A DNA stretch of 47,035 nucleotides from a phage. Below are positions 5,880 through 46,781 of the stretch, in pieces. The stretch lies in sequence record PZ787841.1; one strand, given 5' to 3'. Under the pieces are notes generated by a model. That model was not told the DNA's origin and did no database searches. It saw only the letters and a program-made list of their open reading frames with translations. Both the position numbers and the translations under genes were made by a program. Every line of letters starts with the position of its first letter. Position 1 is the stretch's first letter.

Positions 5880-7720
5880 CTATCGCAGAAGCGCCAGAAG
5901 CTCTTCGGGTGAACGGTCCATGCAGTCACGCACATATGCTGGAAGGTCTTTCTTGTCGTGGATGGCCTTGGCGATGGTGACGTCCACAGTGCCACGTGCC
6001 ATCACATCCGTGTATACTACCGAGTTGGTCGACCGATACGGTGGTTGCGGTCCTCCGACTGCATCCGGTCAACGAGGATGAAAGAGTTGGACATATAGAA
6101 CGTGCGGCTGGCCTTGTTCAGGGTGAGGCCCGTGCCCCCGGTCTGCTGGTTCGATACGAAGAACATGGCGTCACCCCTGAAGGAATTTGCGTTTCTGCTC
6201 GTCGCGCTCGTCCGGGTTCAGCCCGCCGTGGTACTGGCACACCGCATCAGCTCCGTACTTCTCGGTCAGCGCTTCCACGATGTCGGCGATTTCGGGTCGG
6301 AACTGGCCCATATAATCATCGGGTGTCCGGCGTTCTCCTCCGCGTACTCCATCAGGTACGCGATTTTCGGGTTCTTGGCGGGTTCGATGATGCGCACGAT
6401 TTCGCGGTGGCGAGTGCTATGCTCGTCGTTCGGGTCGTCCAGCTTCCAGTACGACACATATCCGGCACAAACTTGCTGCAGGGCCGTATAAGCCGCCAGC
6501 ACGTTCTCGCAGACCAGTTCCACGAAGGAATCGGTGACTGCCCAGCACGCTGGGCCAGCAGCACCGAGAGGTCGGCCTGACGCTCCTTCTTCATTTGGTC
6601 GTATATCTTCTTCTGTTCGGCGGTCAGGTCCACTTCCACGGTGGTATACATCTTCGGCGGGAGGTCTTTCAGCACGTCTTCCTTCTTGACTTGGTACACG
6701 TACGGCTTGATGATCTCCATCAGCTCTTCGATATTGGTATACCCAGTGATTTGCTTGTTCTGGAACCCGCCCTTCTCGCAGTAGCGAGCTTGGAACGACC
6801 CGAAGTCGCCCAACCCGATGATGTCCGGTGACAGGAACTGGAACTGCTGGTACAGGTCCATCGGCCCCTGCGAGATGGGCGACCCGCTCATTATTGCCTT
6901 GTATTTGGACTCGCGGCCCAATATCTCGATGTCGATAGCGCGTGATGCGTCGTGACCCTTGATTTTGTGCGACTCATCCACTGCCTGCATGCGCTGATGG
7001 CTGCGGCGGACAAACTGGGAGGTAGCCGCATACGCTTTGCCCTTCGCTTTGCCCTGACTGAGTGACTCGATGCCGACGATAAACACCTTCATCTTGTTCA
7101 TACCAAAGTCAGCATCGTTGACAGTTTGGCCTTCTTCTCAAACCCGGACATGGTGGTGTCGCAAACAAACGCCTCGTACGGCACGCCGCAATGGATAGCC
7201 AGCTCGTTCACCCAGTTGGTACGGAGCGGTACGGGGCAGTAAATGACCAGCGCGTTTACGATACGAGCGCGGAACCGGGCCGAGGACAGGGTAGATCAGG
7301 GTTTTCGATTTGCCAGTGCCCATCTCCATGAAGAACGCCACCAGCGGAGAGGACCAGCTAAAATCCAGCGCGTCACGCTGGAACGGGAACGGGTTTGTCT
7401 TGAAGTTCGTGCCACGTCGGGAACAGTTCGCGCCGGGTGATGGCGACCGAGTTCACGGCCTCGTTGCACTCCTGTATCACTTGGTCACAGATAGAGACGC
7501 CCGGCTTGCCGACGATGTTGTTCAGCAGGTGCTCGGCGTTCCGACGGATGATCGGCACTACCCAAATCGAGCGGCGTTTCTCAAAGCGGCGGTTCGGGAA
7601 GGCACATAATAAGGTTGTGTACGAGATGGACGCCTCGATATGCATACGCCCGGTGTTGTCGTTCAGACTGATTTTCATGTATGCGCCGGGGCGCTTGTTG
7701 GTATTCGTAGAGTAGAACAT
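5880..7720 (-). CDS. SNF2-family (SF2) helicase/ATPase
   Basis: Motif I GTGKS (ORF 7138..7341), DExH box DESHKIKG (ORF 6352..7101), C-terminal QSEDRNHRIGR motif VI after stitching. Confidence 0.8.
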
Positions 7721-7778
7721 GTTTACATCTCGCTCATTTCTTTCGGTTTGATTTCGGAGGTAGTCAGCTTATCCACCT

Positions 7779-9273
7779 TCACATACCATACATTAGACAG
7801 ACTGCTTGCCGACACGTAGCTTGGTATGCTCGCACCCGTGTTGTTTGAGGATGACCCACACCTGCGGCCCCTTGACGTCGTCGGCACGGTTCTTCTTCAG
7901 GTAGTCGAGGAAGTCCTGACCACGGAAATATACCATGCGGGTTCCGTCCCGGTCCTGCACGACAGGCGTGCCATAGTGCAGCGATTCGCGGTCGTTCTGG
8001 TCCAGCCCGTCCGATTCGAGGTCGGTCTTGGCGAGAAAGGACTGGAGGCGATTCCACATAACACCCTCGATGGTGGCCTCTTCCGGCGCTTCTATCGAAT
8101 ACCGCTTTCGCCATCAGGTCGTGGAGTATCACCTGCCAGCGGTCGTTCTTCATCGGCGGTATCAGGCGGGTCAGTGCCTCGGCGACAGCTTCACGTACGG
8201 CCCGGAAGTCCATCAGCTGGTGGTCAGCAGGTTGACACGCGCCCCATCCACGTACATCGACCAGCGCACTGGCGTAGTCATGTATTTTTCGAGCGGGCCG
8301 AAGGCCGGGAGCGCCCCCATGTCCATCTCGCCCTTCTCCTCCGGTGTGATACCGTATTTGCGGGTCACACACTCGAACGAGCGGCACAGTGATTTCCAGG
8401 GTTCTTCCTTGCACTTATAACGATAATCGCGACGCCCGGCACTGGCGATGACCTTCTTCGCCTCGGCGTGTGACATCGGTTCGGTGAAGATGCGGGCATT
8501 CATATCGAAGGCGCGGTCAACGTAGGTTTCCGGGAAAGCCTGCTTAAGGTAGATGACCATGTTATACATGGCCTCGTTCCGGTGGCCCTTGCCGACCGTC
8601 CGCTATCGATACGCTGGATGCACGGCGGCGCTTCCTGATGCTCGTTATCGCCCTTCTCTATCAGCATGCCCGGCGTGGTGCGGCGAGACTCCGCCACATC
8701 GAGGAAATGCTCGAACGTGATGCGCTTTCCGCCTTCCATGCAGTACCGCAGGCAGTCCGGGTTTTCGGCATCGAACCATGCAAGGTAATCCAGCTTCCCA
8801 GCTGTTGTTCGCCCGTCATCTTGTCCGGTGGCAGGAAATCCTGCTTCGGGAAGACCTCACACCCGCCGTGGCCCAGTTGCACCGCCCACTTAGCCAGTAT
8901 CTTTCTGATGACCGTAGCGCGGATGGTTCGTTGGCGAACAGATAAAGGTGAGCGCCGCCTGACTGGAGCGGCACACGGTCAGCGGGTAGTCCAGCTCGCG
9001 AACCAGCTTTTCCAGTGCATACAGGTCGATGTCCTCGGCGTCACCGTGGGCGTCGATGTCGATGGCACCAAACCAGCAGAAGCCGTCATCCATAATCGGC
9101 ACCAGACCTAGCCCCTTCTTGCCATCGAGGTGGTCGATGAAGTGGTCTATCGTATAGCTTGATTTCTCGGTGATACTGTGGCGCGAACTCGGCACATTCG
9201 GCGTAAACTGACCGAAAGACCGCTCGTTGCCACGGAATAGTTGGACGAACCGCAACAGGTTTCTTTCGTCCAC
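7779..9273 (-). CDS. Primase, archaeo-eukaryotic (PrimPol-like) type, with PriCT-like C-terminal region
   Basis: FGAIDIDAHGD motif in ORF 8890..9273; cysteine-rich region KCKEEPW...CRSFEC in ORF 8213..8569; position next to the helicases. Confidence 0.5.
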
Positions 9274-9420
9274 TAGCGTTTCCTCGTTATCTCTTTATCT
9301 CGGTGCCCATTAAAGCACAGATGACGCCGCCCGCGCTAGTATCCTCTGTTCGGCACCACTCTTTCACGCCCGCGAGAGGTTTTTACTGTCTACCGCCGAC
9401 GACGACGGGGCCGACGGCAT

Positions 9421-9620
9421 CCAGTGTTATCTGTTCCGGGTCTGTTCCATCTGTTCCATCCTGTTCTGGTGGCTGATGGAACGCCTCGTGCCGGGAAGGA
9501 CGCGGTCTGTAGAGGTGTTGTTCCATTGTTCCATCTCGGAACGTATCGGTCGATATTGTCGGCCGCCGACAGCTTCGATTCTCGCGGCGTAAAAACGGAA
9601 CAGAGGAACAGCATCAGAGT
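9421..9620. repeat. Iteron-rich element, copy A: repeated TGTTCC/GGAACA half-sites flanking the perfect palindrome TGTCGGCCGCCGACA
   Basis: ctgttcc x4 at 9430-9468; gttccattgttccatc at 9512-9527; palindrome at 9556-9570; ggaacagaggaacag at 9597-9611; about 90 bp near-identical to 33866-33962. Confidence 0.7.
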
Positions 9621-9645
9621 GCTGGAAAAGGCAGTCCTCATCTTT

Positions 9646-9745
9646 CAGCAAACGAGAAGCCCTCCGTGAAGGTCGAGCATCGAGGCGGTGGGGTAGTGGC
9701 TGGACCCCCTCTTCATGTAGAGGAAAGTACCAGCCGTTTGAACAG
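9646..9745. repeat. Conserved ~100-bp element, copy A, directly 3' of the tail-fibre gene
   Basis: Ends gcaaacgagaagcCctccgtgaa and gaaagtaccagccgtttg match the 34948-35055 copy with the same 52-nt spacing; internal hairpin cctct-N6-agagg. Confidence 0.6.
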
Positions 9746-9762
9746 GAGGGATATCTACTGGG

Positions 9763-12750
9763 TCAGGCTAGCCAGCGCGTGGTCTGGGATGGCGGTTTCG
9801 GAATAGATGTCATAGTCCGCACCATATTTTTGTACAGAAGATACATCCCCAACCCACGGAAGATTTCACCCGTGTAGAACCCGAAGGCCATGCCGTTATC
9901 GTTCGATTCCCTCGGTGCCGGACTCCATGCTCCGTTGATGTTCTTGCCGGGAATGCTGGTCACCGTGAGTTGTCCGCAAGCTCCCTGACGCACCCCTCGA
10001 TAAGCACGTCTAGGTCTGGCACCGTTGACCCCGCCATCTTCGAAGAACTGCACCCGCGAGGAAGAGGCCGCACATATGGCCCGTGAAGTCGTCGGCACTG
10101 GTACTGACGGCCCGGTCGATGGGAAATCGGTCGGTGTCGCCTTGTACTTGCCCGAGTACACGATAAGCCAGTATGCCCAGTTCTCTACGTACTGCTCCAG
10201 CTTCTCCGGCACAGGCTGACCACGCACCTTAAGCTCATACCATGCGCGTGCTGCGGCGTTGAACGCACGGGGCTGATACCCGGCCCATGGGTGACCATCA
10301 CCCCAATGATAGTTGGTCCATGTGTCCGGAGGCCCGTACTTGTAGTTGTCCCAGCGGTTCCAGATGTAGGCTGCACAGCCCGGACCCAGTTCACCAATCA
10401 TCGTGGAGTAGGCCGCTTGGCTGTCGTGCATGAACTGCACCCGATTGTGAACCACGTGGCGTACTTGGACGGGTCTTGATGGATGGTATACATGAACGGG
10501 TACTCGATACCCCGGATACGGCATACCGTGCCACGCTCCATCTGTTCTGTACCTTCCGAGTAGATGTTCGAGAACGGGATAACACCCGGCGCATAGGCCA
10601 GTGAGTCCAGACGGTTAATCATCGTGCAATCACCGATGACCGCCTTGTACGACTCCGGGCAGTTCAGCATCATACGGTAGGTCATCGTCCAGCCGTTGGG
10701 GATATTGTATAGTGGCGGCACGTCGCTTACCACGTAGTAGCTGAAGTTGGCGTTCGGCGTGTTGGAGTCCAGCAGGATAGTTATCTGGTCAACCGCCACC
10801 ATGTTCGGCGTGCTCGGCTCCGGGTCGGCCTCGGTTCCGCCATCCGGGTGGTCAGGCTGGTAGCCGGACAGTGCTGCATCAGCCGGGTTAACTCGACGGT
10901 CGCCCAGTTGCCACGAGTAGCCGGGAGCATCCACCACCAACGCCAGTTGTCGCCGTCAAGCATACGCATGTTGAAGTCTTGGTCGGCTTTTACACACGAT
11001 CTTCTTCGGAATGACTGCTTCTTCGTTGGTCAGCCAGAAGCCAATCACGAAGCCCGCGTCATCGTCCGGGAAGTGCGCGTTGATCACCGTAGCCTGCCGC
11101 CCATCGTGGACGTTGGTTTCGAACGCCTCGGCCCACGTGCAACCACCGTAGTCGGTCACAGCACGCGCATCTGCAACCATGTAGTCGTCATCAGTAGCCG
11201 GGTTGGTCATCAGTGCCAGCGACGTGATGGGGATATCACGGGAAAACAGGTGTCATGCGATGGACTTCGGCAGGGCCAGTCCATACCATGTCGGGTTCGG
11301 CACTTCCTCCTTCGTGGGTGACACGTCCAGCATAACCTCGATGCCGACCTGCTCCCCGGTGTCGCCGATGCCACCATAGGTCGCACGGATTTTGGCGTTG
11401 TAGTCGACGCGGAACCATACCGATTGCTGCTCCATATAGTGCTGGGCCGAGCGGTCCACAGCGACCGTGATGTAGCCCGCAGCGTCGCGCCCGTACTCGA
11501 TGACCGCCGTGTTGGGGTAGCTGATCGTAGCCGATGCCATCGGTAAACGGCGTGTTAGCTACCACCGACTGGCGGAAGAACTTGTCGAGGCTGTCGATAT
11601 AGGTGTACTCGTGGCTTGTGTAGAAGGCACAATCGCACGCCTGCTTATATTTAGCCTCGCCAGTGATGCGCCACAGGAGGTAGCAGCTATCGATGAACCA
11701 AAGCTCGGCATCTGCCGCGTTCCCTAGCTGGTTGTACGACGGAGGCGTGGCCTTCAGCTGCTGAATGGCATATGCACCGGGCGGTTGTGCCATGGTTCAT
11801 TCCGCGCAAACATGTAGCCACCCTGCGCCACTGGTACACGTGATGCGTAGTTGAACAGCCATACCCCGTTTACGGTCGTGTCCTTGAGCTGAATAGTGCC
11901 GAGCTGCGCTGGCTGCGTAGCCGCCGTCGATGATGTCGCCCGCATCGACGTCGAGATCTTGTTCCCGGTCCATGCGATTATCCAGTCCACCGGGTATTCT
12001 TTCGCCTTCGTATCACCGCCTGACCACACCGGAGTGTATACGTCGCCGAGGTACGCCTGCCAGTTAATCCACGCGGAGGATTTCCACGGCTCGGTGACGC
12101 CCGTCGTGATGCGGTGGGAGTCGTACCGTCTGCCAGTTAATCTGCCCGGCGACGTCTTCCTTGATTTTCTGCACTGACGCGTTGATGGCTTCCCACGTCA
12201 TGTGGCCCCGGTGGGCGAACGTCGCGGTGTCCAGCCATTCACCGAAGAACGGTGCGCCCTGTGGGATTTTGGCCCGACCATTGGTAAACACAAGCGGGAC
12301 AGACTCGAACCCACCATGGGTAGCATCGACCGGGTCGATTGGGTAGTGGGCCAGAATCGGTTCTTTGCCGTTTACCAGCCAGTTGCAGATGTAGCGCTTT
12401 GGCGTGGTCGGCACTGGTTGCCCGGCGTAGAAGTAGGCAATATACGCATCCCGAGCCTTTTTCGCGGCGTTGAGAAAGGTCACGTCACGAGTAGCCAGAT
12501 ACATATGGCAGTAGCCGATGATATGGAGTGCCTGACCTTCGGTCGCAGCATCACCGTTCGGCTGGTACTCGGCACGTGTCATGCCGATGAAGTGGCGGTT
12601 GTTGGCGAGTACGCCCTCGTTGTTCTGCAGATAGTGCTGCACCTGCGCGTCGTTGGTGTCGCCCGTATTCCGGCGAGCAAAATCCTGATGCCCATAGGCA
12701 AGAGAAAGAGCGGCGGCAAGTGCGCCGCCGTTAGCAGTATATAGTGACAT
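9763..12750 (-). CDS. Large tail-fibre / tailspike-like protein (about 1000 aa, many frame breaks)
   Basis: ATG at 12750 (MSLYTANGGALAAALSLAYG...); contiguous minus ORFs 12064..12750, 11754..12029, 11236..11793, 10398..10940, 9763..10524; sits after the J-like gene. Confidence 0.45.
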
Positions 12751-33501: not shown

Positions 33502-33563
33502 ATTATACCAAAGCCCCAACTCCCTGTCAATGGTCGATGCACGAGGATGCGACCTTTGTCACA
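33502..33563 (-). promoter_or_regulatory. Consensus sigma70 promoter TTGACA-17-TATAAT (minus strand) with an upstream TGTGA-N6-TCGCA palindrome
   Basis: Plus-strand attata at 33502-33507 and tgtcaa at 33525-33530; palindrome (plus strand tgcgacctttgtcaca) at 33548-33563. Confidence 0.55.
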
Positions 33564-33747
33564 CGAAGCACGGGTTCAAATAGTTGGGATGTGGCACTCG
33601 TCACGCAGCACTCGGAGGTCGGTCTGTGTTCCATCGAGCGGTCGTTCGAGCATAAGAGGAGGGGGACTCGACGGAACGTTCTTTTTATGTGTATCTACAT
33701 AAGCTAATCTTGACAAGATAGGCACTCTCATGCGTTCGGGTCTTTTT

Positions 33748-33962
33748 GTTCCATTGCGTTCCACCATCGTTCCACTATGCCCGGAACAACCCTCCTAAAC
33801 ACGCGCGTAAAAGGGAAACCGCGTCGGTCGCGGACTCTCTCGCCTCGGACGGCAGTTCAGCTATGTCTGTTCCATTGTTCCATCTCCGAATATTAAGTCT
33901 CATATTGTCGGCCGCCGACAGTTTCGATTCTCGCGGACGTAAGAGTGGAACAGGGGAACAGG
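33748..33962. repeat. Iteron-rich element, copy B (same architecture as 9421-9620)
   Basis: tgttccat/cgttccac repeats at 33758-33780; gttccattgttccatc at 33869-33884; palindrome TGTCGGCCGCCGACA at 33906-33920; ggaacaggggaacag at 33947-33961. Confidence 0.7.
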
Positions 33963-33989
33963 CCATCGAGCGCTGCCCATGGCGCTGCT

Positions 33990-34910
33990 ACCCCGGCCCC
34001 AATCCCCCTTTTTAATGTATTCAGCAGACCTGAGACCGTGGTTTTCAGCTGCTGCTCCCGGCGCTTGGCCACAGTGCCGCTTATCGTGTTCCCACAGGCC
34101 ACGACCATGCCCGACAGCTCCAGGACCGACAGGAATTTGTCCTTGCTCTCCATCAGTGCGACCATCAGGCTATCGACCAGCATCACATCACCATCATCCA
34201 CAGGTCGGTCGACCACTACCGCCTGCAGTGCTGCCTTAATCCCCATTCACGGTACTGGCGACTGTGAACTGCTCACGACCAGCTGCGTTTGTCTCTTGCT
34301 CCCGACATCGGTCAGGGAGAGCACGTATTCGTATTCATTTTCGTCTTCTTCACAGTCCCACCCCGTCCATCAGCTCATTAACACCGTCACCTCACGAGCG
34401 CCCATCGGCAGCTCGACCCGATACCAAGCCTTCAGTCCGGTCTTCGCAGTCGAAGCGAGTGCGTCCATTGCCACCCGGTGGTATTCGTTCACCAGAGGAA
34501 CCAGCCACGGGGTCACGCCAGCCAGAGCAGCAATCAGCTGGTTTTCCAGCATCTCGGCACTCAAATCCTGCCCAGCACCCGCAGGTCAGGACAGGCTTCG
34601 CTGCCACGGTTGCTCGAGCTTCCACCCACCAGCACCGACACATCAGCGTATTTTCTCGTATAATCGGTCCCCGCTATCGCAGTTATGGTCCGCACGCCAC
34701 CAGTGCTGCGTACAAGCTCACCACCCACCGCAACCACGTTCCCACAGTCCCGGATAAGCATCTCGGTCAGTCCACGCTCTACATCCACCCCACAACGTCT
34801 GAACGCCTCGACCGTCTTTCCCAACCTCTGTAGCCGTACCAACGACCGTCGACTCGAACCCATCAGCCCAGATGGTGGTTATCTGGAATTTCTGACCTTC
34901 GCCTTTAGTA
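33990..34910 (-). CDS. Cluster of about three small hypothetical ORFs lying between the two halves of repeat copy B
   Basis: Minus ORFs 34561..34863, 34370..34564, 33893..34246; no motif recognised. Confidence 0.3.
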
Positions 34911-34947
34911 TTCATTTTGTTCACCTTTTGCATCCGACAGTTTATTT

Positions 34948-35055
34948 CAGTATTTAGCAAACGAGAAGCTCTCCGTGAACCTCTCGTATTGACCCGCTAC
35001 ATCAGTATTCCCGACCCCCCTCAGGTCAAGGGAAGTACCAGCCGTTTGCACTCTT
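34948..35055. repeat. Conserved ~100-bp element, copy B, directly 3' of the AP2-like gene
   Basis: gcaaacgagaagcTctccgtgaa ... 52 nt ... gaagtaccagccgtttg; internal hairpin ccct-N7-aggg. Confidence 0.6.
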
Positions 35056-40200: not shown

Positions 40201-40228
40201 TGGTGCTTTGTGCTGCTTCTGAATTTTT

Positions 40229-40300
40229 ACTATACCATAGGGTTGGGGTGTTGTCAATCCCCCAACTTATCTCTATGTAGAAGATGTGACACGCATCACA
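40229..40300 (-). promoter_or_regulatory. Consensus sigma70 promoter TTGACA-17-TATAGT (minus strand) with an upstream TGTGA-N6-TCACA palindrome
   Basis: Plus-strand actata at 40229-40234 and tgtcaa at 40252-40257; palindrome tgtgacacgcatcaca at 40285-40300. Confidence 0.55.
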
Positions 40301-44171: not shown

Positions 44172-44743
44172 TCAGCACCCAAATAGTCGATGCGACCAAG
44201 GTAGTGGTCGGCACTCAGGGTCAGACAGCTCGTTCCACAGGGCCATCGCCGCCGACTTCCAGAGCGGTGATACATGGTCGAGGTACTGGATGAAACGCTG
44301 GTTCAGCCCGTGTAGCTGGTCGCGGGCGTAGCTACCTTCCCCATGCTCCATCAGCCAGTACAGCGCCTCGATGAAATCGGCGATTCGACACATACCTTGA
44401 TCGGGCCTTTGGTGTCGATTGACCGATAGTAGCCATCGCCTGCAGTCGCTTCCAGAGCTTCGAGTTTTGCCTTTGCGCCGAGGTACTGCTTGGTCGGCGT
44501 GTTGATGTCGCCAGTGAAGACTTCCGGCGCATCGTGCCACAAGGCCATGACCGCCACGCGACCCAGCTCCACGTCGGTGGCGGCTTCGCCGGGGTTCCCA
44601 CCAGTGCGGCGTAGCCACAGGTCCATCGCCAGCATAGCCACGGCCCATGAGTGTTGCGCCACGTTCTGTGGACGGGTGGTCGGCACTATCTGCCAGCGGT
44701 TTACATACTGTGCGCGCATCAGGTCGCGGGGGGTCATATTCAT
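44172..44743 (-). CDS. datZ: HD-domain phosphohydrolase, DatZ-like dATP hydrolase candidate
   Basis: HD motif QHSWAVAML...LWHDAPEVFTGD in ORF 44351..44743; small size; sits beside the PurA-homologue and MazG-like genes. Confidence 0.6.
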
Positions 44744-44854
44744 CTTGTTATACCTTCTTCGAGTTGTGTTGTGACAGATAGTGCCGTTTGCGGGCGTCCT
44801 GCGAGGAGAACCGTCTACCGCAGACTACACAGAGATATTTCTCTATCGGTATGT

Positions 44855-45660
44855 TCAGCGGCTGCTGGACCACTCCGACACTCTGGCTACCACACTGATG
44901 CCCTTATGAACCACCGGGGCGACACCTCGAGTGCGACCGCCATCAATCACATGTTGATGCGTGCCGTCTTCCAGCTTCTCCCACACCCGTTTCTCATTCA
45001 TTGCCATCTTGTTGGCTACGGCCTTGGCGATATCGATCCCGGCTAGGTGTCCGATGTCGAGCAGCAGGATAGCCACATCAGCGAATTCCCCGGCGTCGAG
45101 GTATTTGCTGGTGTCCAGCTCGGTTAATTCCTTCTTCAGCTTCAGCACTGCTTCGCCGATGGTGCGCTCGGGGAACGTGCGGTCGGCCCAGCCGGAAATC
45201 AGCTGTTGGACTTCGGCGATTGTTCCGGTTGAGTATTGGCGAGTCGCTCGCGTCTGTCCATCTTGTAGCGCTTTCTCAGGCACTGGTTGCACACGTAGTC
45301 CGACTTCGCCAGACGGCTGGGGCTGAATGTCACGTCCGACTGCAGGCACACGCGGCACACGGGCGGTCCAGCGGCGGTCATCTTGGTCTGGTCGGTTTTC
45401 GGCAATCCATCGGATAAACATAAGTCCACTTGCGGCGTGCGCGGCGTGGTGGAGGTCGGTTTCATGGTAATCGTTGCTCTTCTCTAATTCCAGTATGCGA
45501 CGCTCACTCCATCCAGAAGGCGCTCGACTGTCAGCCCGCGCCAGTTTCATTTCCCGTATTTTGCCTCACCCGTCGCCAGTACCCGCGCCACCTCCTCGGT
45601 GAAGCGCGGGTCAATCAGGCTAACGGGGCTTTGTCGGCATCGAGTTTCGATTGCTTTCAT
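44855..45660 (-). CDS. mazZ: MazG-like nucleotide pyrophosphohydrolase, MazZ candidate; an N-terminal KYG..NW region and an internal CxxC...CxxC segment may belong to it
   Basis: C-terminal GEAVLKLKKELTEL...GEFADVAILLLDIGHLAGIDI...NKMAMNEKR (ORF 44855..45550); ATG at 45658-45660; zinc-ribbon segment in ORF 45199..45465 in another frame. Confidence 0.5.
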
Positions 45661-45673
45661 CGCCCCTGCTCCT

Positions 45674-46781
45674 TATTCCTGCTCGTGTTTCATGTCGGTG
45701 AAGATGTCGTTCACGGTCGCGCCGTAGCCGTAGTATGTAGCCAGCGGCATATTGCCCGGAATCCCGGCGACCATTGCGGCACGTTCGATGGTTCCCACCA
45801 CTCAGCCACTTCGTCCGGCGTCATGTAGTTGGAGAAGTTGAGGAATACTCATCCGGGCGAATCGACTTCGAGCGCCGCCAGCGTCTGCAGGTAGCCGAAG
45901 GTGAAGATGCGGCGCGGGAGCTTGGTCACGGTGGTCAGTTCCGCTTCCATTCCGAGGTCTTTCTTCCAGTCCAGTTCCTTCTGGTCTTCGTAGTACGGGC
46001 CGGACCAATTTGCTCACCTGCTCGTTGTTGTAGCGGTTGGCTACGCGGATTGGGTAGGTGCGCATCGTGGCGATCGTGGTCTCGACGAAGGCCAGCGGCA
46101 GGTTGACGTCGACACAGACCTGTGCCGGGGTGCACTCGCGGGAGGTCGCATACGGGTAGAAGCCGTTGTTGATGCCGAGGCTGAGTCCCTGCGCACCCTC
46201 CACCGAATGCGTTCCGCGTCGTAGACTACCGACATATACTCGGCGTTGTTGGCGGTGCTGGTGGAGATGCCCGCTTCACGGATTGGCTTGCTTGTAGATG
46301 TGCTCTTCCATGTAGTCGGCGTTTCCGCCTACCGTGTTGTTGTCGTCCGGGTTGCGCGATGGATTTGGAAATCATCGCAGCACCGCAGCCTTTCTTGGTA
46401 GACCCGATTTTGGTCATCGGGCCTGCTTCCTCTTCCACGTGCTTCTGCATGATAATAGCAGCGGAGGAGTGTAGCATGATGCGTTTGCCGCGCAGCAGGT
46501 CCACACAGGACAGGATTTCGTCGCGCAGCAGTTCGACGTTCATCTGGCTACCGGGGCCAATCGGCACGGTGGTTAGCTTCGGCGATACGATGCCGTTTGC
46601 CAGCATGCAGTGGACAAGCTTGCGGCCTTCTGCATCGATGAGGTGTGGCCTGCGTTGGCACTCCACGCGGTCATCACTACGTCCGGCTGGTCGCGCGGGG
46701 CGACGTAGCCCGCAATGAGACCCTTGCCAGTGCTGCCAACTGCGCGTCAACGATGATAGTGGCTTTTTGTGTTGCTTTCAT
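45674..46781 (-). CDS. purZ: Adenylosuccinate-synthetase homologue, PurZ candidate (N6-succino-2-amino-2'-deoxyadenylate synthase)
   Basis: ATG at 46779-46781; P-loop-like GSTGKG, ANAGHT (GHNAGHT-like), LVHCMLANGIVSP, FEGAQGLSLGINNGFYPYATS (ORF 45802..46203); stop TAA at 45674-45676. Confidence 0.7.

Follow-up and report, generated by a model that had tools for sequence, protein, structure and literature searches.

The intergenic region between the tail-fibre and primase genes

The window, i.e., the whole stretch of DNA that was analyzed, has a length of 47,035 bp. It contains a non-coding gap at positions 9274–9762, which is flanked by two minus-strand genes, a tail-fibre gene ending at 9763 and a primase gene with a GTG start codon at 9273. 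An earlier note had placed an element of about 200 bp (9421–9620) in this gap, where the structural modules border on those for replication, and about 150 bp upstream of the primase start. Both statements agree with the gene map: as the primase starts at 9273, the left edge of the element lies 148 bp upstream of the start codon. The motif TGTTCC is present in seven exact copies within 9432–9610, five on the plus strand (9432, 9443, 9452, 9519, and 9527) and two on the minus strand (9597 and 9605). The palindrome TGTCGGCCGCCGACA (9557–9571) consists of two arms of 7 nt and a single central C, because any odd-length palindrome has one central base. At least seven TGTTCC/GGAACA half-sites in both orientations around a perfect 15-bp palindrome, as had been described, were thus recovered. 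In the whole window, TGTTCC occurs 37 times on both strands, compared with 25.5 occurrences expected from shuffled sequences. The shorter core GTTCC has nine copies in this intergenic region, in addition to a degenerate TGTTCT at 9462, and GTTCCA is enriched in two intergenic regions that comprise 2% of the genome (binomial P = 3e-11).

While the repeats do lie within the 200 bp, the unit turned out to be larger. The full module spans 9365–9610, of which the described element covers only a part, and includes a second palindrome and a pair of CACGCCCGCGAG boxes. Between the module and the primase gene, an extended −10-like promoter element of the primase operon, TGcTTTAAT, was read from the sequence at 9309–9317 (minus strand). 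It had been missed by a consensus promoter scan because a −35 element is absent; at the same position, relatives have TGnTATACT or TTGACN-17-TGtTTTAAT. The left boundary box CACGCCCGCGAG (9365–9376) is the inverted partner of a box at 9581–9590 and lies 10 nt from the proximal palindrome P2, TGTCTACCGCCGACG (9387–9401), which is degenerate and has one mismatch to TGTC-N7-GACA. It is followed by an iteron cluster on the plus strand (9429–9468), in which the three TGTTCC copies at 9432, 9443, and 9452 and the degenerate copy at 9462 have a spacing of 9–11 bp, and by a single inverted iteron, GATGGAACG (9476–9484, minus strand; GGAAC at 9478–9482), which aligns with inverted iterons of the relatives. 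The center is occupied by a GC-rich block with hairpin-like character, CAGACCGCGTCC...CCTC in gene orientation (9486–9512), which is conserved in the alignment and has also been kept in the loci L032–L035 and in the phages SH-Ab and JeffCo.

On the other side of this block, two tandem iterons with an 8-bp period, TTGTTCCAT (9517–9534, plus strand), correspond to three in the relatives, and a single inverted GGAAC core (9538–9542, minus strand) lies between the tandem pair and the distal palindrome P1. P1 is the TGTCGGCCGCCGACA palindrome, it has the form TGTC-N7-GACA, and it is the most conserved feature of the module. The right boundary box, CTCGCGGCGT (9581–9590), is the reverse complement of the left box and lies 9 nt from P1. 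Two inverted iterons, again with an 8-bp period, GGAACAGAGGAACA (9597–9610, minus strand), were read from the sequence at the end of the module. The center of P1 (9564) is the exact midpoint of the tandem pair 9519–9532 (9525.5) and the inverted pair 9597–9610 (9603.5). Each box is located about 10 nt from a palindrome, on the outer side of that palindrome, so that two inverted composite sites, each comprised of a box and a TGTC-N7-GACA palindrome, bracket arrays of 8-bp iterons in both orientations. The flanking box pair was also found in the relatives.

A second copy half a genome away

The label "copy A" in the earlier note implied a partner, and a partner was found. Copy B (33620–33961) contains ten GTTCC/GGAAC cores and, at 33906–33920, the same palindrome as copy A. 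Its core (33866–33961) has a tandem pair at 33868–33881 and an inverted pair at 33947–33960, and the two copies have in common a core of about 95 bp with about 90% identity. These are the only two exact TGTC-N7-GACA copies in the window, for which 0.63 would be expected. The distance between A and B is 24,349 bp, about half of the 47,035-bp genome. Copy B does not adjoin a replication gene. Downstream of it, a perfect sigma-70 promoter, TTGACA-17-TATAAT with a TG (33502–33530, minus strand; 12 of 12 consensus matches), is directed into the operon leading to terS and to the genes for structural proteins; this promoter is conserved in the relatives.

The end of the tail-fibre gene is followed by a block of about 100 nt (9644–9743, minus strand) that ends in a terminator-like hairpin and the box CTTCTCGTTTGCT. 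It is conserved in all relatives, it is repeated at 34953–35051 with about 80% identity, and it is probably the end of the late operon, outside the binding module. The CTTCTCGTTTGCT box was considered as a sigma-54 promoter and rejected after manual inspection, because the spacing is off by 1 nt in PMBT28.

Identity of the genome and quality of the sequence

The window has about 75% DNA identity to Salmonella phage PMBT28, "Pseudomonas" phage PSA28, and Klebsiella phage VLCpiS6a, and, judged by this similarity, the source genome is that of a PMBT28-like siphophage. In this group all genes are on one strand, and PurZ, MazZ, and DatZ are present. The window has homologues of all three on the minus strand between 44220 and 46772 (PurZ 45679–46772, MazZ 44754–45660, DatZ 44220–44743), and therefore the phage is predicted to replace adenine by 2-aminoadenine (dZ), like PMBT28, which serves in the literature as a dZ phage, and like SH-Ab 15497. 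Compared with the intact proteins of VLCpiS6a, nearly every gene of the window is split over two to four frames; examples are the primase (7735–9273), an SNF2 helicase (5886–7693), and DpoZ (248–2103). The widespread frameshifts indicate an error-rich assembly with many indels, so that single-base details of the element have to be viewed with caution. Possibly, the high number of indels is due to Z-substituted DNA.

Conservation of the module in related phages

The complete relatives are VLCpiS6a, PMBT28, PSA28, Providencia phage Kokobel2, and the Acinetobacter phages SH-Ab 15497 and JeffCo, and five complete genomes, from phages of Salmonella, Klebsiella, Providencia, and Acinetobacter, were compared with the window. 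A BLASTN search of GenBank phages with the intergenic region alone, and with the copy-B region including its 1-kb insert, gave no matches; the intergenic homology emerged only via the flanking genes and alignment. The complete relatives have a tail-fibre/primase gap of 410–455 bp with the same layout as in the window. Region B is a gap of 430–555 bp at a distance of 0.47–0.55 genome from A (six phages), and it is located after the replication/early block and before the operon leading to terS. A comparison with related genomes had been proposed as a check of the element, and its absence from this position in related phages, named in the earlier note as grounds for rejection, was not observed: the module is present at both positions in every complete relative, and most partial loci have at least the palindrome at A. 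A terS-based search of IMG/VR for further copy-B regions yielded only three loci.

The palindrome was quantified separately. Exact TGTC-N7-GACA sites occur 2–4 times per genome versus 0.63 expected, and 16 of the 18 occurrences are in regions A or B. In 520-nt search windows upstream of the primase gene, the exact palindrome was found at 17 of 21 loci, three of which are near-identical contigs, compared with 49 of 2000 control windows (2.5%). It is present in most partial loci with a primase identity of at least about 50%, and three of four further Logan/ENA contigs also carry it upstream of the primase. P2 is exact, at about −110 from the primase start, in VLCpiS6a, PMBT28, L006, JeffCo, and L019. 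The palindrome of L035, which is located about 275 nt upstream of the primase, has a center of 6 nt instead of 7 (TGTCATCGTCGACA); this reflects either a variation in spacing or an error in the assembly. Primase homologues with only 28–31% identity lack an upstream intergenic gap, and thus the module could not be followed outside this clade.

The iterons behave differently from the palindrome. They cluster only in regions A and B (P from 1e-8 to 1e-18 in the relatives), and both copies within any complete genome share one iteron, but the core differs between phages. It is GGAAC in the enteric phages, GTAAC in L028, GGTAAC in JeffCo, GCAACC in SH-Ab 15497, CCAGAAC in L032 and L033, and CCGGAAC in L034; in more distant IMG/VR contigs it is TATCAC, TCTACA, or TCACTAC. 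The half-sites of the palindrome are invariant while the iteron core switches, and the layout remains constant. The clearest case is L028: its primase is 83% identical to that of VLCpiS6a and the palindrome and layout are the same, yet every iteron is GTAAC instead of GGAAC. The repeats noted earlier are real, and the half-sites of the palindrome and the iterons, which the earlier note had not distinguished in this way, behave as two separate recognition elements.

The two almost diametrically opposed copies (0.47–0.55 genome, six phages) would also suit a centromere-like or genome-organizing site, at which a protein of the ParB/KorB type or a bridging protein pairs A with B. The parS half-site is TGTTNCAC, and the full parS is a 16-bp palindrome, TGTTNCACGTGAAACA; ParG- or omega-type sites have repeats with an 8-bp period in both orientations. 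The octamer TGTTCCAT resembles the parS half-site, and the 8-bp period in both orientations recalls the ParG- and omega-type sites. The module, however, contains only half-site-like octamers in tandem and not the full 16-bp palindrome, other members of the clade use the unrelated iterons TATCAC, TCTACA, and GCAACC, no ParB, ParA, or RHH protein was detected among about 34 proteins scanned, and the phages are virulent, a plasmid stage being unreported. A centromere-like function is thus very improbable. The IMG/VR contig L020 (89 kb) has a near-perfect parS-like TGTTTCACGTGAATCA about 375 nt upstream of a primase homologue and two more GTTTCACG repeats beside the primase start; this primase is only 40% identical, and the TGTC-N7-GACA palindrome is absent.

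A packaging site (pac) was considered as well, with the small terminase on repeats on either side of a central cut region, as in SPP1 pacL/pacR and P1 pac. In known pac sites repeats flank a central region, and the repeats flanking the center of the module resemble this arrangement; the sites are usually located inside terS or at its start. In favor of such a site, SH-Ab 15497 and JeffCo have copy B immediately upstream of terS, and PMBT28 has been reported to be a headful (pac-type) phage (PMC6025938). Nevertheless, several genes separate B from terS in the enteric phages, B being about 2 kb upstream, and there are two copies half a genome apart, one of which is always at the primase gene and far from terS. 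There is thus only a small chance that the module is a pac site.

Two predicted recognition elements in DNA

The module exists in either orientation: relative to copy A and the genes, copy B is inverted in SH-Ab 15497 and JeffCo and direct in the enteric phages. It is therefore expected to act as DNA, and not as an oriented transcript or a promoter of fixed geometry. Together with the conserved architecture, the concerted phage-specific iterons, and the invariant palindrome, this argues for a cis-acting protein-binding module, i.e., a predicted DNA-level binding site for at least two factors. We infer that a conserved factor would read the palindrome and the box, whereas a second factor, the specificity of which varies by phage, would read the iterons.

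The central 7 nt of the palindrome vary freely, which indicates that the half-sites are conserved and not a hairpin. A G/C swap between the window and the relatives had at first sight looked compensatory, but hairpin formation was discarded, as the center in copy B of the relatives is non-complementary (TGTCGACGGGCGACA). Recognition of the half-sites by a dimer would fit the palindrome better than a hairpin.

A function at the RNA level, i.e., a structured RNA or simply a terminator and leader between two operons, was considered as well. Transcription either covers the region or flanks it, a hairpin resembling a terminator is present at 9660–9672, and the long-range inverted boxes could pair. 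On the other hand, no Rfam match at the gathering threshold was found anywhere in the window, and folding was not significantly better than that of shuffled sequences for the core as DNA (z = −1.8) or for the flanking block 9644–9743 as RNA (z = −1.0). Conservation concerns short repeats, which occur in both orientations, and half-sites that are fixed around a free 7-nt center, not covarying stems. An RNA function is the least probable of the readings considered here.

Two further types of sites were compared with the palindrome. A core site of a tyrosine recombinase was rejected, because in the relatives A and B do not have the same central regions and no recombinase is encoded; in addition, recombination between direct copies would split the genome. 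The LexA SOS box is defined as CTGT-N8-ACAG, and its spacing does not match the palindrome, as the dyad TGTC-N7-GACA corresponds to CTGT-N9-ACAG where a C precedes it.

Possible functions: replication origin or control region

The architecture had originally been taken as that of a replication origin or a clustered regulator-binding site. The common part of this proposal, a conserved cis-acting binding module, is borne out as a prediction, but the AT-rich unwinding element of an origin is absent. With a probability of roughly 45%, the most likely function of module A is that of a replication origin or a site of initiator assembly similar to the SaPI ori, and copy B would be its counterpart, comparable to the pair oriL/oriR of SPP1.

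Several observations are in favor of an origin. In every complete relative, the position directly upstream of the primase-helicase-polymerase operon is taken by the module, and copy A lies beside a replication gene, that of the AEP primase, in complete relatives and partial loci alike. Each copy has 9–10 GTTCC cores, i.e., the cluster of short repeats by which iteron origins are recognized, and all six genomes contain two copies with the same iterons and palindrome. In addition, the concerted switching of the iterons is the behavior that would be expected of origin iterons and their cognate initiators. The similarity in layout to the SaPI ori and the precedent of two similar origins in SPP1, both described below, also favor this reading.

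Other observations are not in favor of an origin. An AT-rich unwinding element was detected in neither copy in any of the six genomes; the AT content of A and B mostly does not exceed the genome mean, and where it does, the excess is no more than 3 points, and the most AT-rich 40-mers of the two regions are promoters and not the module core. GC skew is equal in both halves of the genome and gave no signal for replication strand, origin, or terminus. Furthermore, an operon promoter is located downstream of each copy, an arrangement that would suit a regulatory role just as well.

The module might accordingly be a transcriptional control region, in which a phage-encoded regulator would polymerize on the iterons and a second factor would bind the palindromes, switching two large co-directional operons on or off; in detail, it could be an operator/enhancer array or a boundary between the late and replication transcription units. 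Each copy is located between the end of one operon and the next promoter (an extended −10 at A, a perfect TTGACA-17-TGnTATAAT at B), and terminator-like hairpins are present inside or beside both regions. In the L006 sequence, P2 is centered about 74 bp upstream of the estimated transcription start, which is compatible with an activator site, and the L014 iterons abut a TATAAT. Phage-specific repeats in a conserved layout would also suit the co-evolution of a repressor and its operators. The distance between module and promoter, however, is not constant: at A it is below 100 bp, with about 50 bp in the window, and at B of the window it is about 340 bp. In the Acinetobacter phages, moreover, all of copy B is turned around. 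This variation in distance and orientation weakens the regulatory reading but would still be compatible with an enhancer-like role. Moreover, similar promoter-like sites at 187–221 and 40214–40248 have no iterons, no HTH or RHH regulator was found among the approximately 34 proteins scanned, and at A the module always goes together with the primase gene. All in all, a control region is the main alternative to an origin and a real possibility, but a rather doubtful one.

For the preferred reading as an origin, the following mechanism can be envisaged. A conserved phage replication protein would bind the palindromes as a dimer, for which half-sites 11 bp apart from center to center, about one helical turn, would be suitable. 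A second protein with phage-specific specificity would coat the iterons, and both proteins together might distort or open the DNA, enabling the PrimPol, the UvrD-type helicase, DpoZ, and SSB to start. Copy B could be a second origin, or, as has been proposed for oriR of SPP1, a bound site that stalls forks and thereby leads to a switch to concatemer synthesis.

The best candidate for binding the palindrome would be the primase encoded immediately downstream, the C-terminal part of which is winged-helix-like. The gene downstream of copy A encodes an AEP primase (Pfam AEP-TOTE; PHROG "primase"). In an AlphaFold model derived from 36 homologues (pLDDT 87.8), residues 427–500 have a secondary structure with a winged-helix pattern, and we infer that a winged-helix match may be placed at these residues. 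L007 and L014, with different iterons but the same palindrome, are nearly identical in this region; thus, if it binds DNA, its target is more likely to be the palindrome than the iterons. Scans of about 34 early and replication proteins with Pfam and PHROG revealed no HTH, RHH, ParB, or ParA domain; nor was an initiator helicase of the DnaB or SF3 type or any classical initiator detected, which is a further point against an origin. The search for the reader of the iterons did not yield a convincing candidate: no specificity-linked column was found in the primase, SNF2, the gp32-34-like proteins, UvrD, DpoZ, the SSB-like protein, or PurZ, and neither the sliding identity of the primase, SNF2, UvrD, and the gp32-34-like proteins between pairs with the same and with different iterons nor a comparison of the SH-Ab and JeffCo proteomes pointed to one.

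Comparison with known systems

The module was compared with four systems. In the satellite phage P4, the octamer TGTTCACC occurs as direct and inverted repeats at two loci, ori and crr, both of which are needed in cis, and the primase-helicase alpha binds the repeats through its C-terminal winged-helix domain. Repeats in both orientations at two separate loci would be the analogous feature here. In contrast to the AEP primase, which has no helicase domain, P4 alpha combines a primase of the Toprim type with an SF3 helicase in one fusion protein, and P4 is not known to have a conserved TGTC-N7-GACA palindrome. The papillomavirus origin contains an E1 palindrome flanked by E2 sites, and also an AT-rich element. 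By analogy, a palindrome for a conserved replication protein and flanking sites for a second protein that confers specificity may be present in the module; as the proteins and the hosts are unrelated, this is an analogy only.

The origins of SaPIs have 6–12 short iterons in two oppositely pointing sets around a center, beside pri-rep, and the iterons are read by a winged-helix domain (PMC9371898). The module is similar in its short iterons (SaPI cores have 5–6 nt, and the unit here has 8 bp, including a core of 5 nt), in having 6–12 copies, with at least two per side of the center and in opposite directions, in its position beside a primase gene, and in the variation of the iteron sequence between related elements. 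It differs in that the center is a conserved GC-rich palindrome and not AT-rich, in that no SF3 or AAA+ Rep helicase is encoded, in its position upstream of the primase gene, whereas the SaPI ori is downstream of rep, and in having two copies per genome with two recognition elements, variable iterons and an invariant palindrome.

Bacillus phage SPP1 resembles the phage analyzed here in being a virulent siphophage of the pac type whose genes are all on one strand, and it also has two similarly organized repeat origins, oriL and oriR (PMC6316719), one copy being tied to the initiator gene and the other being intergenic among late genes. The initiator at oriR has been proposed to stall forks and trigger a theta-to-sigma switch (PMC6316719, PMC3485210). 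Unlike the module, the SPP1 origins are comprised of direct repeats together with an unwinding element that is AT-rich, oriL lies inside gene 38, and the distance between the copies is about 13 kb instead of half a genome. In SPP1, the initiator gp38 cooperates with a DnaB-type helicase and a helicase loader, and none of the three was detected here. What is unusual about this predicted origin-like module of the iteron type is the conserved palindrome in place of an AT-rich center, the two recognition elements, and the duplication half a genome apart.

A full-text search did not reveal a description of the module in the literature on PMBT28 and SH-Ab 15497, as represented mostly by titles and abstracts. 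As far as apparent from these, the publications comprise genome announcements, dZ biochemistry, and tail-fibre studies, and those on dZ phages in general deal with nucleotide synthesis (PurZ, MazZ, and DatZ) and the DpoZ polymerase. The module would provide the PMBT28/SH-Ab 15497 clade with a defined and conserved candidate for a cis-acting replication start, together with a candidate binding protein. Natural iteron variants that differ in a single base (GGAAC versus GTAAC, with primases that are 83% identical) would represent ready-made specificity swaps. If the module is an origin without an AT-rich element, it bears on the question of how origins melt when A:T pairs are strengthened, and it could be useful in building dZ-DNA replicons. 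If it is a regulatory array instead, it would define the switch between the two halves of the phage transcription program.

Further observations, mostly in the vicinity of copy B

Several features, most of them near copy B, were observed in addition. An insertion of about 1 kb (33960–34950), which is not present in the relatives and has no match among GenBank phages, splits the copy-B core from a TTTAGCAAACG box. Its coding (minus) strand is unusually G-rich, with a GC skew of −0.26 on the plus strand, and its last open reading frame (34246–33893) contains an HTH-like stretch and extends into the iterons. The most AT-rich 40-mer of the window (33679–33718; 72.5% AT) is located inside region B and is missing in the relatives; it contains the inverted repeat TTATGT-N6-ACATAA and a TTGACA. 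Lastly, the promoter-like sites at 187–221, 40214–40248, and 33502–33530 have the common spacer CCCCAAC(C)CTATGGTATA. The recurrence of this spacer, which is also found in the copy-B promoter of the relatives, suggests that these are strong early promoters belonging to one family in which the spacer is conserved.
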